The notes below the pieces were generated by a model. The model had not been told where the DNA came from. It did no database searches and saw nothing but the letters and a program-made list of their open reading frames with translations. A DNA stretch of 64,000 bases, from the IMG/VR virus record IMGVR_UViG_3300029448_000012. The stretch is one strand, 5' to 3'. Every line of letters begins with the position of its first letter. The first letter of the stretch is position 1. The position numbers and the translations under genes are program-made. Positions 44,130 through 49,806 of this stretch are shown in pieces. This stretch comes from an uncultured virus (IMG/VR IMGVR_UViG_3300029448_000012). Its lineage: Duplodnaviria > Heunggongvirae > Uroviricota > Caudoviricetes.

Positions 44130-44537
44130 TTATTCCTCGTTTTGTAATTCTCTAAGTCTTGCTAGTTCTTCTTCAAGTTTCATAATTTCAAGTCTTTTTC
44201 TTTTTAATTCTAATAGATAAAGTGTATTACAATTGATTCGTTCTTTTGGTCCATCAAGTGGTATGGTAATACGAGCATATACTCCAATGTCTTTAGTGCT
44301 GTGGCCTATCGATGAATCGTTTTGTTTGAGTGGGCTTTCATAATTATCAATAATGCCTGTGACACCGAATTCAAGATTGGTACCACCACCAATAGAGTTT
44401 TTACAATCCATTTCGCCAGCTCTAAATGAATCTTGACCGTATGTTGAACCGGAGTTGGGCAACTGTAAATTTAATGAGCTGCTTTCAGCGATCGCTAGCG
44501 ATGGCAATAGACAAAGCATAATTATAAGTTTTTTCAT
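44130..44537 (-). CDS. Exported protein with Cys-bracketed beta-hairpin and C-terminal coiled coil (cassette gene 5)
   Basis: Signal peptide MKKLII...AIA; NLEFGVTG and IGVYARITIPL alternating strands. Confidence 0.7.
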   Translation of the reverse strand: MKKLIIMLCLLPSLAIAESSSLNLQLPNSGSTYGQDSFRAGEMDCKNSIGGGTNLEFGVTGIIDNYESPLKQNDSSIGHSTKDIGVYARITIPLDGPKERINCNTLYLLELKRKRLEIMKLEEELARLRELQNEE

Positions 44538-44905
44538 TTAAATCTCGAGCATATCATAGAAGATATTGATGGCCGGCCTCCATTTCTTAATTTAGATCTA
44601 GAACAAATATATTCTGCTTTTGATCGATCCGTTTTTCTTATGTAAACATCAAACTTTACTCGAGAAAGATATTCAACTTTCATTACTTTATATGACGATA
44701 CAAATGGAACAGGATTCCAATCTTTATCAAACACCGCAATCTCATAATATTCAACATCATCTCTTTTATTAAAAACTTCCATTTCAGTAATTAATAAACC
44801 ATTATATGCTGATAGTTTCAATTTAGGATATGTTGGCGTCATCTCATGCGCAAAGGCAATTGATGACACTAACATAAACAATAATGATATAAAATATTTA
44901 TTCAT
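44534..44905 (-). CDS. Exported Ig-like protein, weakly resembling the PapD chaperone N-domain (cassette gene 4)
   Basis: Signal peptide ending AFA; MTPT..L....MEVFN beta pattern; two C-terminal Cys. Confidence 0.5.
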   Translation of the reverse strand: MNKYFISLLFMLVSSIAFAHEMTPTYPKLKLSAYNGLLITEMEVFNKRDDVEYYEIAVFDKDWNPVPFVSSYKVMKVEYLSRVKFDVYIRKTDRSKAEYICSRSKLRNGGRPSISSMICSRFK

Positions 44906-44906
44906 A

Positions 44907-45410
44907 TTATTTTGCGATACAAACCGCTTCAATATTGGCTTCATATGTTCCGCCTGGGAAAGCTTTATTACCACCATACGTTGCAGTTGAAGTCGACTTA
45001 AACCAAGTTGAACCAGATGCTGTTAAGTCATATTGTGTAGTTTGACCAAATGTTACTTTGTTTGTTTCATATGAACCCATATTAGTTGCATCACTAACCG
45101 CACTTACTTCTGTTGAACCTGTCCAAACAACTGTATCACTTAATGATGGACTTTCGGAAAAGTAAGTTGGTGTTGTAACCTGAGCATAATACGCATCAGC
45201 TAAAGTAACATCATATCTTACGATCGGCTGAACACCACCATCAGCTGCAGCAGTTGTCAATGTGTAAGCATTTGGGTTACCATAAACACCGGGAGTATCG
45301 GTTGTGATTACACAGCGAGATTGAACATTACCAGTAATAGGGATTTCTGCAGCCATTGCCGAGAAACAACCCAAACTCAAAATTCCAGCTAGAATTGATT
45401 TTTTGAACAT
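44907..45410 (-). CDS. Exported fimbrial/pilin-like subunit (cassette gene 3)
   Basis: Signal peptide ending AMA; ITGNVQSRCVI start and FPGGTYEANIEAVC end; Thr/Gly-rich beta protein; SD AGGAG. Confidence 0.6.
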   Translation of the reverse strand: MFKKSILAGILSLGCFSAMAAEIPITGNVQSRCVITTDTPGVYGNPNAYTLTTAAADGGVQPIVRYDVTLADAYYAQVTTPTYFSESPSLSDTVVWTGSTEVSAVSDATNMGSYETNKVTFGQTTQYDLTASGSTWFKSTSTATYGGNKAFPGGTYEANIEAVCIAK

Positions 45411-45419
45411 TCTGTTCTC

Positions 45420-46325
45420 CTAATTATTATACTGCATATCTACCATTTGATTATGCAGCAATTGTTGAGCTAGCCCGTTTCGTAGGCCTTGTTGATTATC
45501 TTCAAGTGTTTTATCAATTAGTGTAACGGTTTCTTTATATACACCACCATTGATAATTTTATTCGTATAACCATTGTCAATTTGTTTCTGCATAATGCCG
45601 TTCATAATTATAATTCTTTGATTCTCTGCAAAGAGTCCAGCTGCGTTTGTATCGGCTAGCATAGCTAAGCGATATTCTCTTTTACGCTTTTCTTCCTCTT
45701 CTTCGTCTTCTTCTAATTCTTCTTCAACTGTTTCTTCGTTTTCCTCGATTAAAGATTTTTCATCATCATTTAAATTAACGTATTCGTCATCGGTAGCATC
45801 ATATATCTCTATGTCGGGTATTACTGGCATTGGTACTTCGTATCCTGGACAATTTGGATCAAACTGTGGATTGTAACAAGGATCTACTTTGTACATGTAA
45901 ACCACATTAGGATCTTCAACTGATCCAGGTCCATCTACTTCAATAGAACCGTCACCCCATAACTCTCTATTTAATCCAGGAACTACCGGCACAACCTTTC
46001 TGATTTCTGTTCCTCCTAAAGATCCCGGCTTCCACTGATCTGTTTCTCGAAAAATATATCCAGTTCCAGCAATGTTTTTATTTTGAACGTGCACGTCGAC
46101 TGAGTCATCTACTTCTTTTTGAATAGTATAGTTATAAATCACACCATTAATATCTAACCCAGGTGGAGTCGGAAGAACATTCTGCATATTCCAAGAATTG
46201 CCGGTAGATGCAGCATTGCCGGTTGTGCCATAATATGGAGCTATACTCTCAGAGTAAGAATAAGAGGCCCATGAGGATGCCACCAAGACTAATAGCGTCT
46301 TCTTTAAGATCTTGAGTTTCTTCAC
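45420..46325 (-). CDS. Exported protein with beta domain, DPC..PQ.DPNCPGY motif and acidic linker (cassette gene 2; GTG start inferred)
   Basis: Signal-like KKLKILKKTLLVLVASSWASYSYS; overlaps the upstream gene. Confidence 0.7.
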   Translation of the reverse strand: MKKLKILKKTLLVLVASSWASYSYSESIAPYYGTTGNAASTGNSWNMQNVLPTPPGLDINGVIYNYTIQKEVDDSVDVHVQNKNIAGTGYIFRETDQWKPGSLGGTEIRKVVPVVPGLNRELWGDGSIEVDGPGSVEDPNVVYMYKVDPCYNPQFDPNCPGYEVPMPVIPDIEIYDATDDEYVNLNDDEKSLIEENEETVEEELEEDEEEEEKRKREYRLAMLADTNAAGLFAENQRIIIMNGIMQKQIDNGYTNKIINGGVYKETVTLIDKTLEDNQQGLRNGLAQQLLHNQMVDMQYNN

Positions 46326-46788
46326 TGGTATGTTTTTCCTTTTGCGTTTCTTCATGAGATTCCCAGCCAATTTTTGCAGCTTGGCCAATCTGTCCTTCGT
46401 AAGGACAAGGTGTACCAGCCATCATCATAGCATCAAATACATTCTCATCTTGACACATAACAGAAACTGCCGCAACTTTCATTCCCATATCATATAATGT
46501 CTTAGCATTTTTCAGTCTTAAACAATTTTCTTCAGTAAATGTAGTACCGGCTGAAATACCTAGAATCTGTGTTTGTACTGCGCCAGCTACGCCAATTGTA
46601 CACAAATCACTATTACTATTTGAGCCAAGTTGTGGCGAAATAGCAGACGGTGGAGGTGACTTTACAGTTGTCTCCATATTTCCATTTGTAGTCACAGTGC
46701 TATTTGTTGTAGATTCTGTTTGAATCGTTTCAGCATTTGCTGTGCTAACAACAAGTAACATCAAAAATAAAACTAACCACTTATACAT
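46249..46788 (-). CDS. Exported Cys-rich protein with C-terminal hydrophobic anchor (cassette gene 1)
   Basis: Signal peptide ending ANA; PPPSAISP, four Cys, AGTPCP; SD AGGAG. Confidence 0.75.
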   Translation of the reverse strand: MYKWLVLFLMLLVVSTANAETIQTESTTNSTVTTNGNMETTVKSPPPSAISPQLGSNSNSDLCTIGVAGAVQTQILGISAGTTFTEENCLRLKNAKTLYDMGMKVAAVSVMCQDENVFDAMMMAGTPCPYEGQIGQAAKIGWESHEETQKEKHTSEETQDLKEDAISLGGILMGLLFLL

Positions 46789-46834: not shown

Positions 46835-47038
46835 CTATAATTTGACACCATTGAGTGTCAATAATTTGTCATTAAAATTTTTATCTGGTTCTTTTGGTTC
46901 AACTTTAACTTCATCTTTTGGTGTCAATCTCATTGTTAAAGATAAAATACGTAATTTTAATCTGTCCATATTATTATCATATGGAGGCAAATTTAATTCT
47001 TTTCTCATTGTTGCGATCTTCAATTTGATATCATTCAT
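46835..47038 (-). CDS. Small hypothetical protein
   Basis: Overlaps the stop of the upstream minus-strand gene. Confidence 0.5.
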   Translation of the reverse strand: MNDIKLKIATMRKELNLPPYDNNMDRLKLRILSLTMRLTPKDEVKVEPKEPDKNFNDKLLTLNGVKL

Positions 47039-47267
47039 ACACTTTAATTCCTAAAGCTTCTGGATTTGTATAAATCGGCTTACAATACGAAGTCACTCTG
47101 TCCCTTGGATCAATGAAGTCCATATATCTGTAATTGCCATATCTTTTTGATACTTGTTTAGCAAAGTAATTGCATCTGTTAATATCATAAAAATACATAT
47201 CATTTGAAATCAAACGTCTATCTTCACCAACTCCTAAATAAACTACTAATAAAAAGATATGTATCAT
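47031..47267 (-). CDS. Small protein with hydrophobic N-terminus and two Cys
   Basis: MIHIFLLVVYLG...YFYDINRC...YCKP; late promoter at 47329-47336 (-). Confidence 0.6.
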   Translation of the reverse strand: MIHIFLLVVYLGVGEDRRLISNDMYFYDINRCNYFAKQVSKRYGNYRYMDFIDPRDRVTSYCKPIYTNPEALGIKVYE

Positions 47268-47347
47268 TTGACAAACCAGTACAGAGTAGATTATGATTTA
47301 AGTCAATAGAAATATATCTCACCAATGCTATTTATACAAAAAAACAG

Positions 47348-47385
47348 TTTACAAATATATTAAATTTTGGTATAATATATAAATA
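47348..47385 (+). promoter_or_regulatory. Tandem early (TTTACA-N17-TATAAT, 47348-47376) and late (TATAAATA, 47378-47385) promoters for tmRNA
   Basis: Both exact motifs lie immediately upstream of the tmRNA acceptor piece. Confidence 0.8.
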
Positions 47386-47390
47386 CAAAT

Positions 47391-47750
47391 GCAGATGATA
47401 GAGGCTTTACAGGACGCGGGGGCAGTGCCCGCCGCCTCCACCATAAACACATTAGAGATAACATGAGTAGTTGTTGCACAAGAAAAAGAACTTGGAAAGA
47501 TCTCATGTTTCTACCTATGGCCGTAAGTATTGCAGTTTTAGGACTTGTATTCTTACTAGGTATTGAAATGGGAATAGCATATGCTCTAGGCTATGTTGAT
47601 TCTAGTGTGTTTATGATGGGGGCGAAATAGGATCGACTGGTGGCTGAGTCTGCGAAAAGTAAATGCAAACGATAACTTTGCACCTCAGGATATGCGCCTA
47701 GCAGCGTAGTTCCTATGCGCCCGTCGGAGCGTGGAAACAGAATCCGACAC
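47391..47750 (+). ncRNA. ssrA: Circularly permuted two-piece tmRNA (alphaproteobacterial type); outer ends approximate
   Basis: Acceptor piece (T arm GCGGG-GGCAGTG-CCCGC, then CGCCTCCACCA ending 47443) precedes the coding piece (GGGGGCGAAATAGGATCGAC from 47618). G3.U pair present. Tag frame 47665-47709 reads ANDNFAPQDMRLAA*. 3' hairpin GTCGGA/TCCGAC. Confidence 0.95.
47463..47630 (+). CDS. 55-aa putative membrane peptide inside the tmRNA intervening segment
   Basis: MSSCCTRKRTWKDLMFLPMAVSIAVLGLVFLLGIEMGIAYALGYVDSSVFMMGAK*; basic N-terminus plus TM segment; weak SD AGAG. Confidence 0.6.
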   Translation: MSSCCTRKRTWKDLMFLPMAVSIAVLGLVFLLGIEMGIAYALGYVDSSVFMMGAK

Positions 47751-47769
47751 TTTATTCTAGGAGTTTATA

Positions 47770-47934
47770 ATGGTAAGACCAAACACAAACTTTAATTTAT
47801 CTGTGCGCGATGTTGAATTGATTGAATTTGCTTTACGCAATAGTAAACAGACACAAGAAGTTATAGAATTGCTTGCCAAAATTCATAATCAAAAAAATTG
47901 GTATAGACCGAATCAGATATATGTGAGTGGTTGA
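47770..47934 (+). CDS. 54-aa small protein (not in ORF track)
   Basis: SD AGGAG; MVRPNTNFNLSVRDVELIEFALR...IHNQKNWYRP...YVSG. Confidence 0.7.
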   Translation: MVRPNTNFNLSVRDVELIEFALRNSKQTQEVIELLAKIHNQKNWYRPNQIYVSG

Positions 47935-48407
47935 TGTTAAAACAAATTAAGTATGGAAACGCATATCCTCTTTGGAAAATGCTATGGCCTGGTCGAGATG
48001 ACATTAAACCTATGTCATCAATGACAGATTTACATGATTGGGATATGAATATTTATGAAAAGTATGAACCTATATTCTTTGGTATATACACCGATGATAC
48101 AAATGAACTCGTTGCGGTTAATAGTTGCCATCCTACTTCCGAAACTCGTATGAGATCAAGAGGTTTGTATGTCAAATCCGAATATACTGGAAATGGTTTA
48201 GCTCAAGGTTTGTTGCAGCATACTATTGATTATTCAAGAAACGAGGGATATGAAGTTCTTTGGAGCATACCTCGACTTACCGCACTTAAGTCATATACTA
48301 GTGTAGGGTTTATTGAAACTGGTGATCGTTGGAGTGGTGAAGCTTGGAAATCAGATGGAGTGCCACAAACACAAACAAACGCATATGCAGAAATTAAATT
48401 AAAATAA
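47934..48407 (+). CDS. GNAT family acetyltransferase
   Basis: RGLYVxxEYxGxGLAxxLL acetyl-CoA motif; A..Y...GF. Confidence 0.85.
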   Translation: MLKQIKYGNAYPLWKMLWPGRDDIKPMSSMTDLHDWDMNIYEKYEPIFFGIYTDDTNELVAVNSCHPTSETRMRSRGLYVKSEYTGNGLAQGLLQHTIDYSRNEGYEVLWSIPRLTALKSYTSVGFIETGDRWSGEAWKSDGVPQTQTNAYAEIKLK

Positions 48408-48487: not shown

Positions 48488-49444
48488 ATGGCACATCAAG
48501 TTGAAACAATGGCTTATGCAGGTGAAGTTCCTTGGCATGGCCTCGGTGTACCGGTTAGTAATGATCTTACACCGGTGCAAATGATGGAAAAGGCTGGCGT
48601 CGATTGGCGTGTACAAGAAGTCGAAACTTTCATCGAATACAATAACAAGAAAATGACGACTGGTCAAAAGGCTCTGGTTCGCGAAACCGATGGTCGTATC
48701 TTGACTACAGTCGGTGAGAACTGGAATCCAGTTCAAAACGAAGATGCATTCAATTTCTTCGCTGAATATTGCCTTTCCGGTAACATGGAAATGCATACTG
48801 CTGGTTCTCTTAGAGATGGTCAGATGGTATGGGCATTGGCTAAAGTCAAGTCAGACTTTGAGCTTTTCGGTGGAGATCGTGTTGAGTCTTATCTTCTCTT
48901 CTCAAATCCACATCAATATGGTAAGGCAATTGATATTCGTTTTACTCCAATCCGTGTGGTATGTAACAACACTTTGACTTTGTCACTTGATCAAAAGACT
49001 GAAAAATCTGTCAAGGTTGGTCACCGTGTTGAGTTTGATGCAAATGAAGTTAAGACTGCACTTGGTATTGCTAGTGACAAACTGGCAAACTATAAGGAAG
49101 CTGCAGAGTTTCTTGGTAAGAAAAAGTTCAATATGGACTCTTATATTGAATATCTTAACACTGTCTTTCCTCGTACTGCTGATAAGCGCATACAAGGTAA
49201 AGGTTTAAGTGTTGATACTCTTTCACGTAATGCTCGTCAAGCACATGACATTCTTCACACTCAGCCAGGTGCTGAATATGCAGAAGGTACGTGGTGGCAG
49301 GCATTTAACTCTGTTACATACATTACTGATCACGTTCAAGGTCGTAATGCTGATAATCGCTTGTATTCTTCATGGTGGGGTGGTAATCAACTTCGTAAAA
49401 AGAATGCATTGAAAACAGCAATTGAATTTGCGGAGGCTGCATAA
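48488..49444 (+). CDS. DUF932 family phage/plasmid protein
   Basis: PWHGLG, PVQNxDAF, TAGSLxxG, TPIRVVCNNTL, GTWWxAFNxVT. Confidence 0.9.
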   Translation: MAHQVETMAYAGEVPWHGLGVPVSNDLTPVQMMEKAGVDWRVQEVETFIEYNNKKMTTGQKALVRETDGRILTTVGENWNPVQNEDAFNFFAEYCLSGNMEMHTAGSLRDGQMVWALAKVKSDFELFGGDRVESYLLFSNPHQYGKAIDIRFTPIRVVCNNTLTLSLDQKTEKSVKVGHRVEFDANEVKTALGIASDKLANYKEAAEFLGKKKFNMDSYIEYLNTVFPRTADKRIQGKGLSVDTLSRNARQAHDILHTQPGAEYAEGTWWQAFNSVTYITDHVQGRNADNRLYSSWWGGNQLRKKNALKTAIEFAEAA

Positions 49445-49806
49445 TGCAAAAACTAGTTGTAGATGGTTGGAATGCTATTATGGATCACAAGCGTAATCCA
49501 TTAAGCAACATTCCAGATTTAAATACTCGACATATGATCATGCAGGTATTAGCATGGATATGGTGTATTATCTTTTCAATGAGTCTCGGTAGCATCTTTG
49601 TATTTGGTGTAAGTGTGGTTGCTCATACTTTGTTACTAGCAGGTATTGCTATCACAGTTGGTACATTTACTGCTGCAAAGAAAAAACCAGAACTTTTTAA
49701 TCTGCGCCCTGGGTATCACAGCGTAAGTCGCACAAGACAATATATGTGGATCAATGGACAAAAGGTAAGACTTGATCCAAATGATCCTGGAGGTGAACAT
49801 GAATAA
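49444..49806 (+). CDS. Small two-TM membrane protein
   Basis: WNAIMD..NPL..IPD...RHMIMQVLAW; ends GGEHE. Confidence 0.7.
   Translation: MQKLVVDGWNAIMDHKRNPLSNIPDLNTRHMIMQVLAWIWCIIFSMSLGSIFVFGVSVVAHTLLLAGIAITVGTFTAAKKKPELFNLRPGYHSVSRTRQYMWINGQKVRLDPNDPGGEHE

Follow-up and report, generated by a model that had tools for sequence, protein, structure and literature searches.

A permuted tmRNA gene and the reading frame in its spacer

The stretch analyzed here (the window) comprises 64,000 nucleotides of an uncultured virus (IMG/VR record IMGVR_UViG_3300029448_000012; Caudoviricetes) and carries, at positions 47391-47751, a permuted two-piece transfer-messenger RNA (tmRNA) gene whose spacer holds an open reading frame (ORF) of 55 codons. 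The window is phage DNA, with UvsX-like, DnaB-like and ThyX-like ORFs around 39-42.5 kb, and judged by the helicase its nearest cultured relatives are T4-like marine phages (62-68% identity). Features are on the plus strand unless stated otherwise.

The tmRNA gene was identified by two Rfam covariance models, both of which exceeded their curated cut-offs: alpha_tmRNA (RF01849) matched 47329-47751 with 77.9 bits (cut-off 50, model positions 1-355) and tmRNA_permuted (RF04321) matched 47391-47709 with 69.1 bits (cut-off 47, model positions 1-213), indicating that 47391-47751 is a permuted two-piece tmRNA. According to both alignments the acceptor piece (47391-47443) comes first and contains the T-arm stem (47416-47420 / 47428-47432) and the 3' strand of the acceptor helix (CGCCTCC, 47433-47439) followed by ACCA (47440-47443). 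The coding piece (47618-47751), 91% identical to that of L289, a locus syntenic with the window, begins with the acceptor 5' strand (GGGGGCG, 47618-47624) and continues with the conserved GAAATAGGATCGAC and the tag frame (47665-47709), which opens with the alanine resume codon GCA at 47665, encodes the peptide ANDNFAPQDMRLAA ending in LAA and stops at TAG 47707-47709. A tRNA-Ala-like domain is present, with a 7-bp acceptor helix, a G:U third pair, a discriminator A plus CCA and a T-arm, and the acceptor pairs covary in relatives, three of them being changed on both sides. Between the two pieces the Rfam alignments place the spacer (47444-47617), an intervening segment of 174 nt that is not part of the mature tmRNA; L289 has 22 nt at this place.

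The tmRNA body is unusually small, with a coding piece of about 134 nt that is without a block of about 35 nt found in the nested relatives L121-L124 and L134 described below. ARAGORN called no tmRNA in the window. The long spacer was ruled out as the cause, since L121, which has the same spacer, was called and L289, with its 22-nt spacer, was missed; as L289 shares the body of the window tmRNA, the miss is attributed to the reduced body. Rfam finds both the window tmRNA and L289, and ARAGORN finds neither; annotation pipelines based on ARAGORN would omit this tmRNA.

The initial annotation of this region had described an ATG-initiated ORF of 55 codons with a CC motif, a basic patch and a transmembrane helix, ending inside the tmRNA coding piece, and both descriptions were borne out. 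The ORF (47463-47630, +) encodes 55 amino acids followed by TAG and, judged by its homologues, substitution pattern and hydropathy, is predicted to specify a small single-pass membrane protein. The two cysteines are residues 4-5, the net charge over residues 1-14 is +3, and the Kyte-Doolittle maximum for a 19-residue segment is 2.64, at residues 14-32. Codon 52 takes its third base from G1 of the mature tmRNA (47618), and the last four codons and the TAG (47628-47630) lie in the coding piece. The ORF consists of a 45-codon core (47463-47597), homologous in alignments to free-standing 45-aa genes, and a C-terminal extension made up of codons 46-55 (VDSSVFMMGAK) and the TAG (47598-47630), which corresponds to the translated 3' arm of the spacer's closing stem and bases 1-13 of the coding piece. 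Of 5000 dinucleotide-shuffled versions of the spacer, 139 contained an ATG ORF of at least 55 codons. The argument from chance is thus weak, and the case for the ORF therefore rests on comparison.

The 174-nt spacer is closed by a long stem that extends the acceptor helix, in agreement with the initial annotation, which had placed its arms at 47442-47456 and 47601-47615. In the minimum free energy (MFE) fold (-69.6 kcal/mol) the stem has 16 bp, formed by a 5' arm at 47442-47457 (CATAAACACATTAGAG) and a 3' arm at 47600-47615 (TTCTAGTGTGTTTATG), and is stacked on the 7-bp acceptor helix with a two-base internal loop between them. None of 200 shuffles folded as well (z = -6.35). When the pairing of the closing stem was tested on eight related sequences, 96.6% of the cells paired and five pairs were changed on both sides, compared with 35-52% pairing in slid controls. 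The 5' arm includes a Shine-Dalgarno (SD)-like AGAG (47454-47457) five bases before the ATG, at a place where the relatives carry GGAG.

Relatives of the spacer ORF and the spacers of other tmRNA genes

A peptide scan revealed relatives of the ORF, with 60-100% identity, at 21 of 41 candidate viral-contig stretches. Eight of these loci (L121-L127 and L134) are nested in spacers of permuted tmRNAs, as in the window. The other 13 (L128-L133 and L135-L141) are free-standing 45-aa genes with a TAA or TGA of their own, away from any tmRNA, in contexts such as virion protein / tail sheath, tail terminator / small terminase, or after a tail-fibre-like gene. Residues M1-R9, D13, L17, P18, L32, E35 and A39-G43 were invariant in an alignment of 17 sequences. 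The window ORF has all the traits of this family, namely the MSSCCTRKR N-terminus, D13, LP at 17-18, one hydrophobic helix with E35, and AYALG at 39-43; the family, unnamed and defined in the present analysis, is referred to here as the MSSCCTRKR small membrane-protein family. The ORF was intact, with no frameshift and no stop, in the window and in all eight nested loci, one of which (L127) has TTG as its start codon; the nested copies are closely related, and their intactness does not amount to nine independent observations.

The ratio of nonsynonymous to synonymous differences per site (pN/pS) was determined by the Nei-Gojobori method on the 45-codon core of 18 distinct sequences out of 22. 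It was 0.289 overall, 0.301 in the free-standing copies and 0.241 in the nested copies, compared with 0.80 and 2.07 in frame-shifted controls. A check of ORF conservation and of nonsynonymous change across phage tmRNAs, which the initial annotation had called for, thus came out in favour of the frame being kept. Variable sites at the three codon positions numbered 28, 16 and 40 of 45 overall, and 19, 9 and 29 in the nested copies alone, among which synonymous divergence (pS) reached 0.51-0.61 (L125, L134). Synonymous variants were found even within the invariant N-terminal codons, which indicates conservation of the N-terminal motif at the protein level. A profile search of a large protein collection gave 264 candidates, among which 113 protein clusters matched at E <= 1e-3; these were mostly of 44-45 aa and from marine metagenomes, and none had a functional name. 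Nested copies had often been gene-called with false upstream extensions of 64-82 aa. With tblastn against 50,697 phage records, the free-standing form matched nothing and the nested form had only a noise match (E = 5). By the measure of sequence comparison, these results confirm that the nested ORF is a genuine, selected protein-coding gene in the tmRNA spacer. Our best guess for the product is an accessory protein directed to the membrane of the host.

The spacers of other phage tmRNAs were examined in a sample retrieved with a single exact 19-mer from the 5' end of the tmRNA, which gave at least 120 viral loci and is not an unbiased census; the counts given here for this sample are for the matches listed. 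The permuted structure could be placed in 117 of the viral loci. With the window included, 118 phage-contig tmRNAs had 106 distinct spacers, 46 of them of at least 100 nt. In 36 of these 46 a forward ATG ORF took up 60% or more of the spacer, and a reverse-strand ORF did so in 10 of the 46. Most of the phage spacer ORFs have their start codon 7-47 nt past the CCA and a GGAG-like motif ahead of it, and they belong to several unrelated families. Two further families of spacer ORFs gave pN/pS values of 0.30 and 0.31, with 1.11-1.82 in shifted-frame controls.

Within its 499-nt spacer, L015 has an ORF of 120 aa with 63% identity to a free-standing gene of the window (49444-49806, +), indicating that a second gene family of the window has been captured in a spacer. 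The window gene encodes a two-helix membrane protein of 120 aa without a Pfam or PHROG family. The spacers of the MKNPLVKK family (L031, L042, L047, L069, L112 and L078) have two overlapping frames, an acidic ORF of 23-25 codons at +13, led by AAGGAG, and a conserved membrane peptide of 38-44 aa at +41 in another frame, possibly in a leader/coupling arrangement.

Among cultured phages, the OM43 phage Melnitz (a Methylophilales phage, MZ577097; L142) has a 142-nt spacer with a GGAG-led ORF of 54 aa (1252-1416) that overlaps the coding piece by 42 nt and is not in the frame used by the window ORF; the record has only "SsrA" annotated across it. This ORF is only weakly similar to others (46% over 26 aa to the first ORF of L015), and its likeness to those of L096 and L044 is partly the tmRNA 5' end in translation. 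In Melnitz a glutamine riboswitch aptamer follows the tmRNA (1554-1602), as published. Pelagibacter phage Mosig has a 46-nt spacer with no ORF.

The same 19-mer gave 120 loci in bacterial genomes, of which 105 were placed, with a median spacer of about 34 nt and three spacers of at least 90 nt. No convincing ORF was found in these 105 spacers, the one long frame, of 115 aa, being in a spacer of 70% G+C. In a class-wide bacterial sample RF04321 matched in 148 of 151 genomes, over spans of 152-343 nt, and among the 12 longest matches, 11 of which were placed with spacers of 10-133 nt, there was no SD-led ATG ORF filling the spacer. For bacteria, absence here means that spacer ORFs of this kind were not found in the genomes searched.

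The spacer cargo and the tmRNA around it vary independently of each other. The spacer leader, ORF and 3' arm of the window are 89-100% identical to those of L121-L124 and L127, the window and L121 ORFs differing by three changes, all synonymous, whereas the tmRNA bodies (with the T-arm and the initial 20 bases left out) are 14-76% identical and in part unalignable. No flanking gene is common to the nested relatives and the 64-kb window. On the other hand, L289, whose upstream gene is 70% identical to that of the window at the DNA level and whose terminal helix carries a compensatory change, has no ORF in its 22-nt spacer. Since L289 has the same tmRNA, the tmRNA does not need the ORF. Other tmRNAs with the same tag hold other cargo, in spacers of 238 and 230 nt with ORFs of 43 and 68 aa, respectively. 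These loci (L288-L296) came from a shorter pattern of the tag region; an exact 25-mer of the window coding piece gave no match in viral contigs, so that the window itself is absent from that collection. In a tree of the family, seven nested copies formed one clade (83/87) and L134 grouped with a free-standing copy (91/92). RNA libraries were searched as Logan contigs, in which contig ends, strand and expression level are unreadable and uncovered stretches carry no meaning. Contigs with the same flanks and 65, 127 or 21 other letters between them were found there, which look like other tmRNAs with other spacers. Judged from these comparisons, the spacer acts as a slot for interchangeable cargo, which apparently moves between different tmRNA genes via the conserved flanks formed by the acceptor helix and the closing stem.

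Expression of the spacer ORF and the stop codon inside the tmRNA

A sigma-70-like promoter, TTTACA-17-TATAAT with an upstream TG, lies at 47348-47376 (+), immediately ahead of the acceptor piece; it was found by consensus match only (11 of 12 positions), and relatives carry TTGACA and TATAAAT at this position. It is presumed to be the start of a pre-tmRNA that includes the ORF. No promoter-like site was found between it and the ORF, the acceptor piece included, and no terminator-like site in 47000-48000. A second strong promoter-like site (TTGACA-18-TATGAT, 11 of 12 matches) is present at 47268-47297 (+), about 80 nt further upstream, and could yield a longer precursor.

We consider it probable that the window comes from a T4-like marine phage with a functional two-piece tmRNA, the spacer of which has captured a real gene for a small membrane protein as exchangeable cargo that is read into a stop codon of the tmRNA. 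The spacer of an alpha-type two-piece tmRNA would have taken up a gene of the 45-residue single-pass family, whose members are free-standing genes in other marine phages. In the spacer this gene lacks a stop codon of its own, and ribosomes would read on across the closing stem's 3' arm and into the start of the mature tmRNA until they met the conserved UAG. The ORF, which has no promoter of its own, would be transcribed as part of the pre-tmRNA, and the pre-tmRNA would therefore be both a messenger and the precursor of a stable RNA. In keeping with tRNA and tmRNA processing in general, RNase P would generate the 5' end of the coding piece and would require the acceptor helix for this; as the two halves of this helix are separated by the spacer, it could form only when transcription of the entire spacer is complete. 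In the folded RNA the ribosome-binding site and the AUG would be buried in the closing helix, so that translation would most likely be confined to nascent or unprocessed transcripts and be ended by maturation. Folding would be held back while ribosomes crossed the 3' arm and the acceptor strand, and after termination the helix would close and maturation follow.

Contigs from RNA libraries overlap the spacer. Metatranscriptome contig X1 (47549-47692) matches the window exactly, with no mismatch, over the ORF and across the border of the spacer and the coding piece, which is weak evidence given that library DNA is possible. X4 (47412-47641), from one run, spans the whole spacer of an L121-type gene, again with DNA carry-over possible.

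Several results weigh against this reading, in addition to the close relatedness of the nested copies and the manner in which the viral sample was drawn. The predicted unpaired probability of the SD and the AUG is 0.02-0.03 both for the precursor and for the spacer after excision, and the SD of the window is weak (AGAG, compared with GGAG in the relatives); according to these folding predictions expression from the folded RNA should be poor. Even in a nascent RNA without the 3' arm the AUG had an unpaired probability of 0.01, the SD being partly free (0.32), and thermodynamics alone would thus give no open start site. Nor could burial of the SD be upheld as a general design, since, of the 30 ORF-bearing spacers that have an SD-like motif, no more than 11 showed it paired to the 3' arm in the MFE fold. 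RNA-library contig X2 (47250-47473) reaches about 100 nt upstream of the promoter, which suggests DNA or read-through. The peptide of the window matched no Pfam family at E <= 1, S23p thus included, had a partial match to phrog_33354 only in PHROGs (E 0.012), and reached best scores of 0.79-0.81 in the ESM Atlas, all with unnamed clusters. The support for translation of the nested ORF comes from sequence comparison. Purifying selection despite the predicted burial of the SD and AUG would nevertheless argue for translation of nascent or unfolded transcripts, and co-transcriptional translation is what we infer in order to reconcile the two.

A more far-reaching proposal, which we put forward tentatively and regard as doubtful, is that the spacer of phage two-piece tmRNAs is a dedicated expression slot for small proteins, exchangeable by recombination, in which a co-transcriptional pioneer round of translation ties the peptide to tmRNA output early in infection. 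The closing stem and acceptor helix would then bury the ribosome-binding site and hand the RNA to the tRNA-processing enzymes, and peptide output would be tied, transcript for transcript, to tmRNA output. In the clade of the window, late translation of the excised spacer would be a non-stop event, cleared by the tmRNA that had just been released.

The initial annotation had gone further and proposed a feedback switch between peptide synthesis and tmRNA maturation, 5' maturation leaving a non-stop mRNA that is itself a tmRNA substrate. As a selected feature, such a switch would have its stop codon selected to lie beyond the RNase P site, so that the matured ORF would be a non-stop message tagged and destroyed by the released tmRNA and peptide output would be inversely coupled to tmRNA maturation. 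The geometry permits this. With RNase P cleavage at G1 assumed, only the unprocessed precursor has the stop codon, as had been claimed, and the excised spacer, which ends within codon 52, is without the last codons and the stop. In addition, all eight members of the window clade read through to the TAG, including those with a different acceptor stem. These members, however, are closely related to one another, and the TAG belongs to a conserved stretch of the tmRNA. L134, which has a different closing stem, has its stop TGA one base before G1. In the other families of spacer ORFs the stop is at +13 (TAG), -1 (TGA before G1), -7 to -16, or +30/+42 relative to G1, and its position differs even within families (for example L003 and L068); independently nested genes thus did not consistently retain a stop beyond the processing site. 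The extension codons are missing in all 13 free-standing homologues, and the residues of the extension follow the variant of the acceptor stem, GAK in the window and GLK or GLN where the stem is GGGCCTG. L289, moreover, shows that the tmRNA does without the ORF. The stop inside the mature tmRNA thus looks like a by-product of the junction and not like a conserved device, the gene having lost its own stop and the TAG being the first in-frame stop after it, and with a stop position this variable the non-stop switch is unsupported as a selected feature. We consider such a switch unlikely; non-stop translation of the excised spacer as a side effect is possible.

A slightly less likely alternative is that the gene is a silent passenger, recently captured, not translated in the spacer and not yet decayed. 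The predicted pairing of the SD and AUG, the weakened SD of the window and the TTG in place of ATG in L127 are what such a passenger might be expected to show, and the ORF within Coxiella's 23S rRNA intervening sequence (IVS) was reported, in the part of the paper available, not to be synthesised in vivo and to be decaying (PMC4990558). This is disfavoured by the low pN/pS and the third-position excess (19/9/29) of the nested copies, which show zero frameshifts or stops in the window and eight nested loci at a pS of up to 0.51-0.61, and by the same signal in two other nested families. Conservation of the spacer as a structured RNA, either a processing signal or a regulatory RNA, with an incidental open frame would fit the strong fold and the ORFs of equal length in shuffled spacers, but is very improbable given that homologues with their own stops stand outside any tmRNA, that substitutions are concentrated at third codon positions while frame-shifted controls fail, and that support for pairing is limited to the closing stem.

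Neighbouring genes and comparison with known systems

The next gene downstream (47770-47934, +), 19 nt past the tmRNA in the ORF list, has a GGAG of its own and encodes 54 aa without a match in the family search; it is probably co-transcribed with the tmRNA. Directly upstream of the tmRNA are five minus-strand ORFs (44130-46788), several with signal-peptide-like N-termini and partly common to L289. No Pfam family was found in this block, and its PHROGs matches were all of unknown function; its identification as the curli operon reported for Melnitz-like phages was dropped for lack of Pfam support.

Two-piece tmRNAs encoded by phages behind an early promoter have already been published (PMC9004378, available in part). 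The window tmRNA shares with those of Alphaproteobacteria and of marine myophages (Melnitz, Mosig) the order of acceptor piece, spacer and coding piece, the 7-bp acceptor helix with a G:U third pair, the ACCA, the T-arm and an alanine-led tag ending in LAA. It differs in the spacer, which the published accounts, in the parts available, describe as discarded RNA, whereas here 174 nt, compared with the bacterial median of about 34 nt, contain a selected protein gene. The available part of a 2025 paper on a tmRNA database lists, as contents of spacers, a tRNA gene and a repetitive element, and no protein gene (PMC11915505). The same source, to the same extent, describes homing-endonuclease genes in tmRNAs within group I introns of the T-loop (PMC11915505). 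Like the spacer described here, such introns are removable segments that spread horizontally and can carry a protein gene. In the present case, however, there is no ribozyme (only the two tmRNA families reach the Rfam gathering score in the window) and no exon ligation, the two pieces staying separate, and the cargo consists of small membrane or other proteins and not of the mobility enzyme of the element itself.

The 23S rRNA IVS of Coxiella burnetii with its S23p ORF (PMC4990558, same portion) is likewise a stem-closed, excised segment that carries an ORF and was horizontally acquired. There, the host molecule is an rRNA and excision is by RNase III, whereas here it is a tmRNA with tRNA-type processing; the S23p ORF is reported to be probably unexpressed and decaying, whereas the spacer ORFs are under purifying selection; and the proteins are not homologous, the window peptide matching no Pfam family. 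This IVS ORF is the nearest analogue of the tmRNA spacer ORF. A further comparison is with the dual-function RNAs SgrS/SgrT, RNAIII/delta-haemolysin and SR1/SR1P, which combine an RNA function with a small, often membrane-active peptide in the same mature molecule. The tmRNA precursor likewise combines an RNA function and the coding of a small protein in one transcript, but its coding part is removed on maturation, and the RNA and messenger roles would therefore be successive and mutually exclusive for each molecule. Full-text searches turned up no account of proteins encoded in the spacers of tmRNA genes, and no paper on ORFs in this loop of Rickettsia, which the initial annotation had mentioned; an early remark in the founding papers on two-piece tmRNAs is possible.

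With selected genes in the spacers, the precursor of a stable RNA would double as a messenger, which implies a competition of ribosomes and RNase P for one transcript that can be tested, and cultured phages such as Melnitz make spacer ORFs experimentally tractable. The spacers also point to an overlooked reservoir of small phage proteins, membrane proteins in many cases, that are mislabelled by gene callers and masked by tmRNA annotation. Finally, a modular slot, with the same cargo in different tmRNAs and the same tmRNA with and without cargo, would be a new example of cassette exchange at the conserved flanks of an RNA gene.

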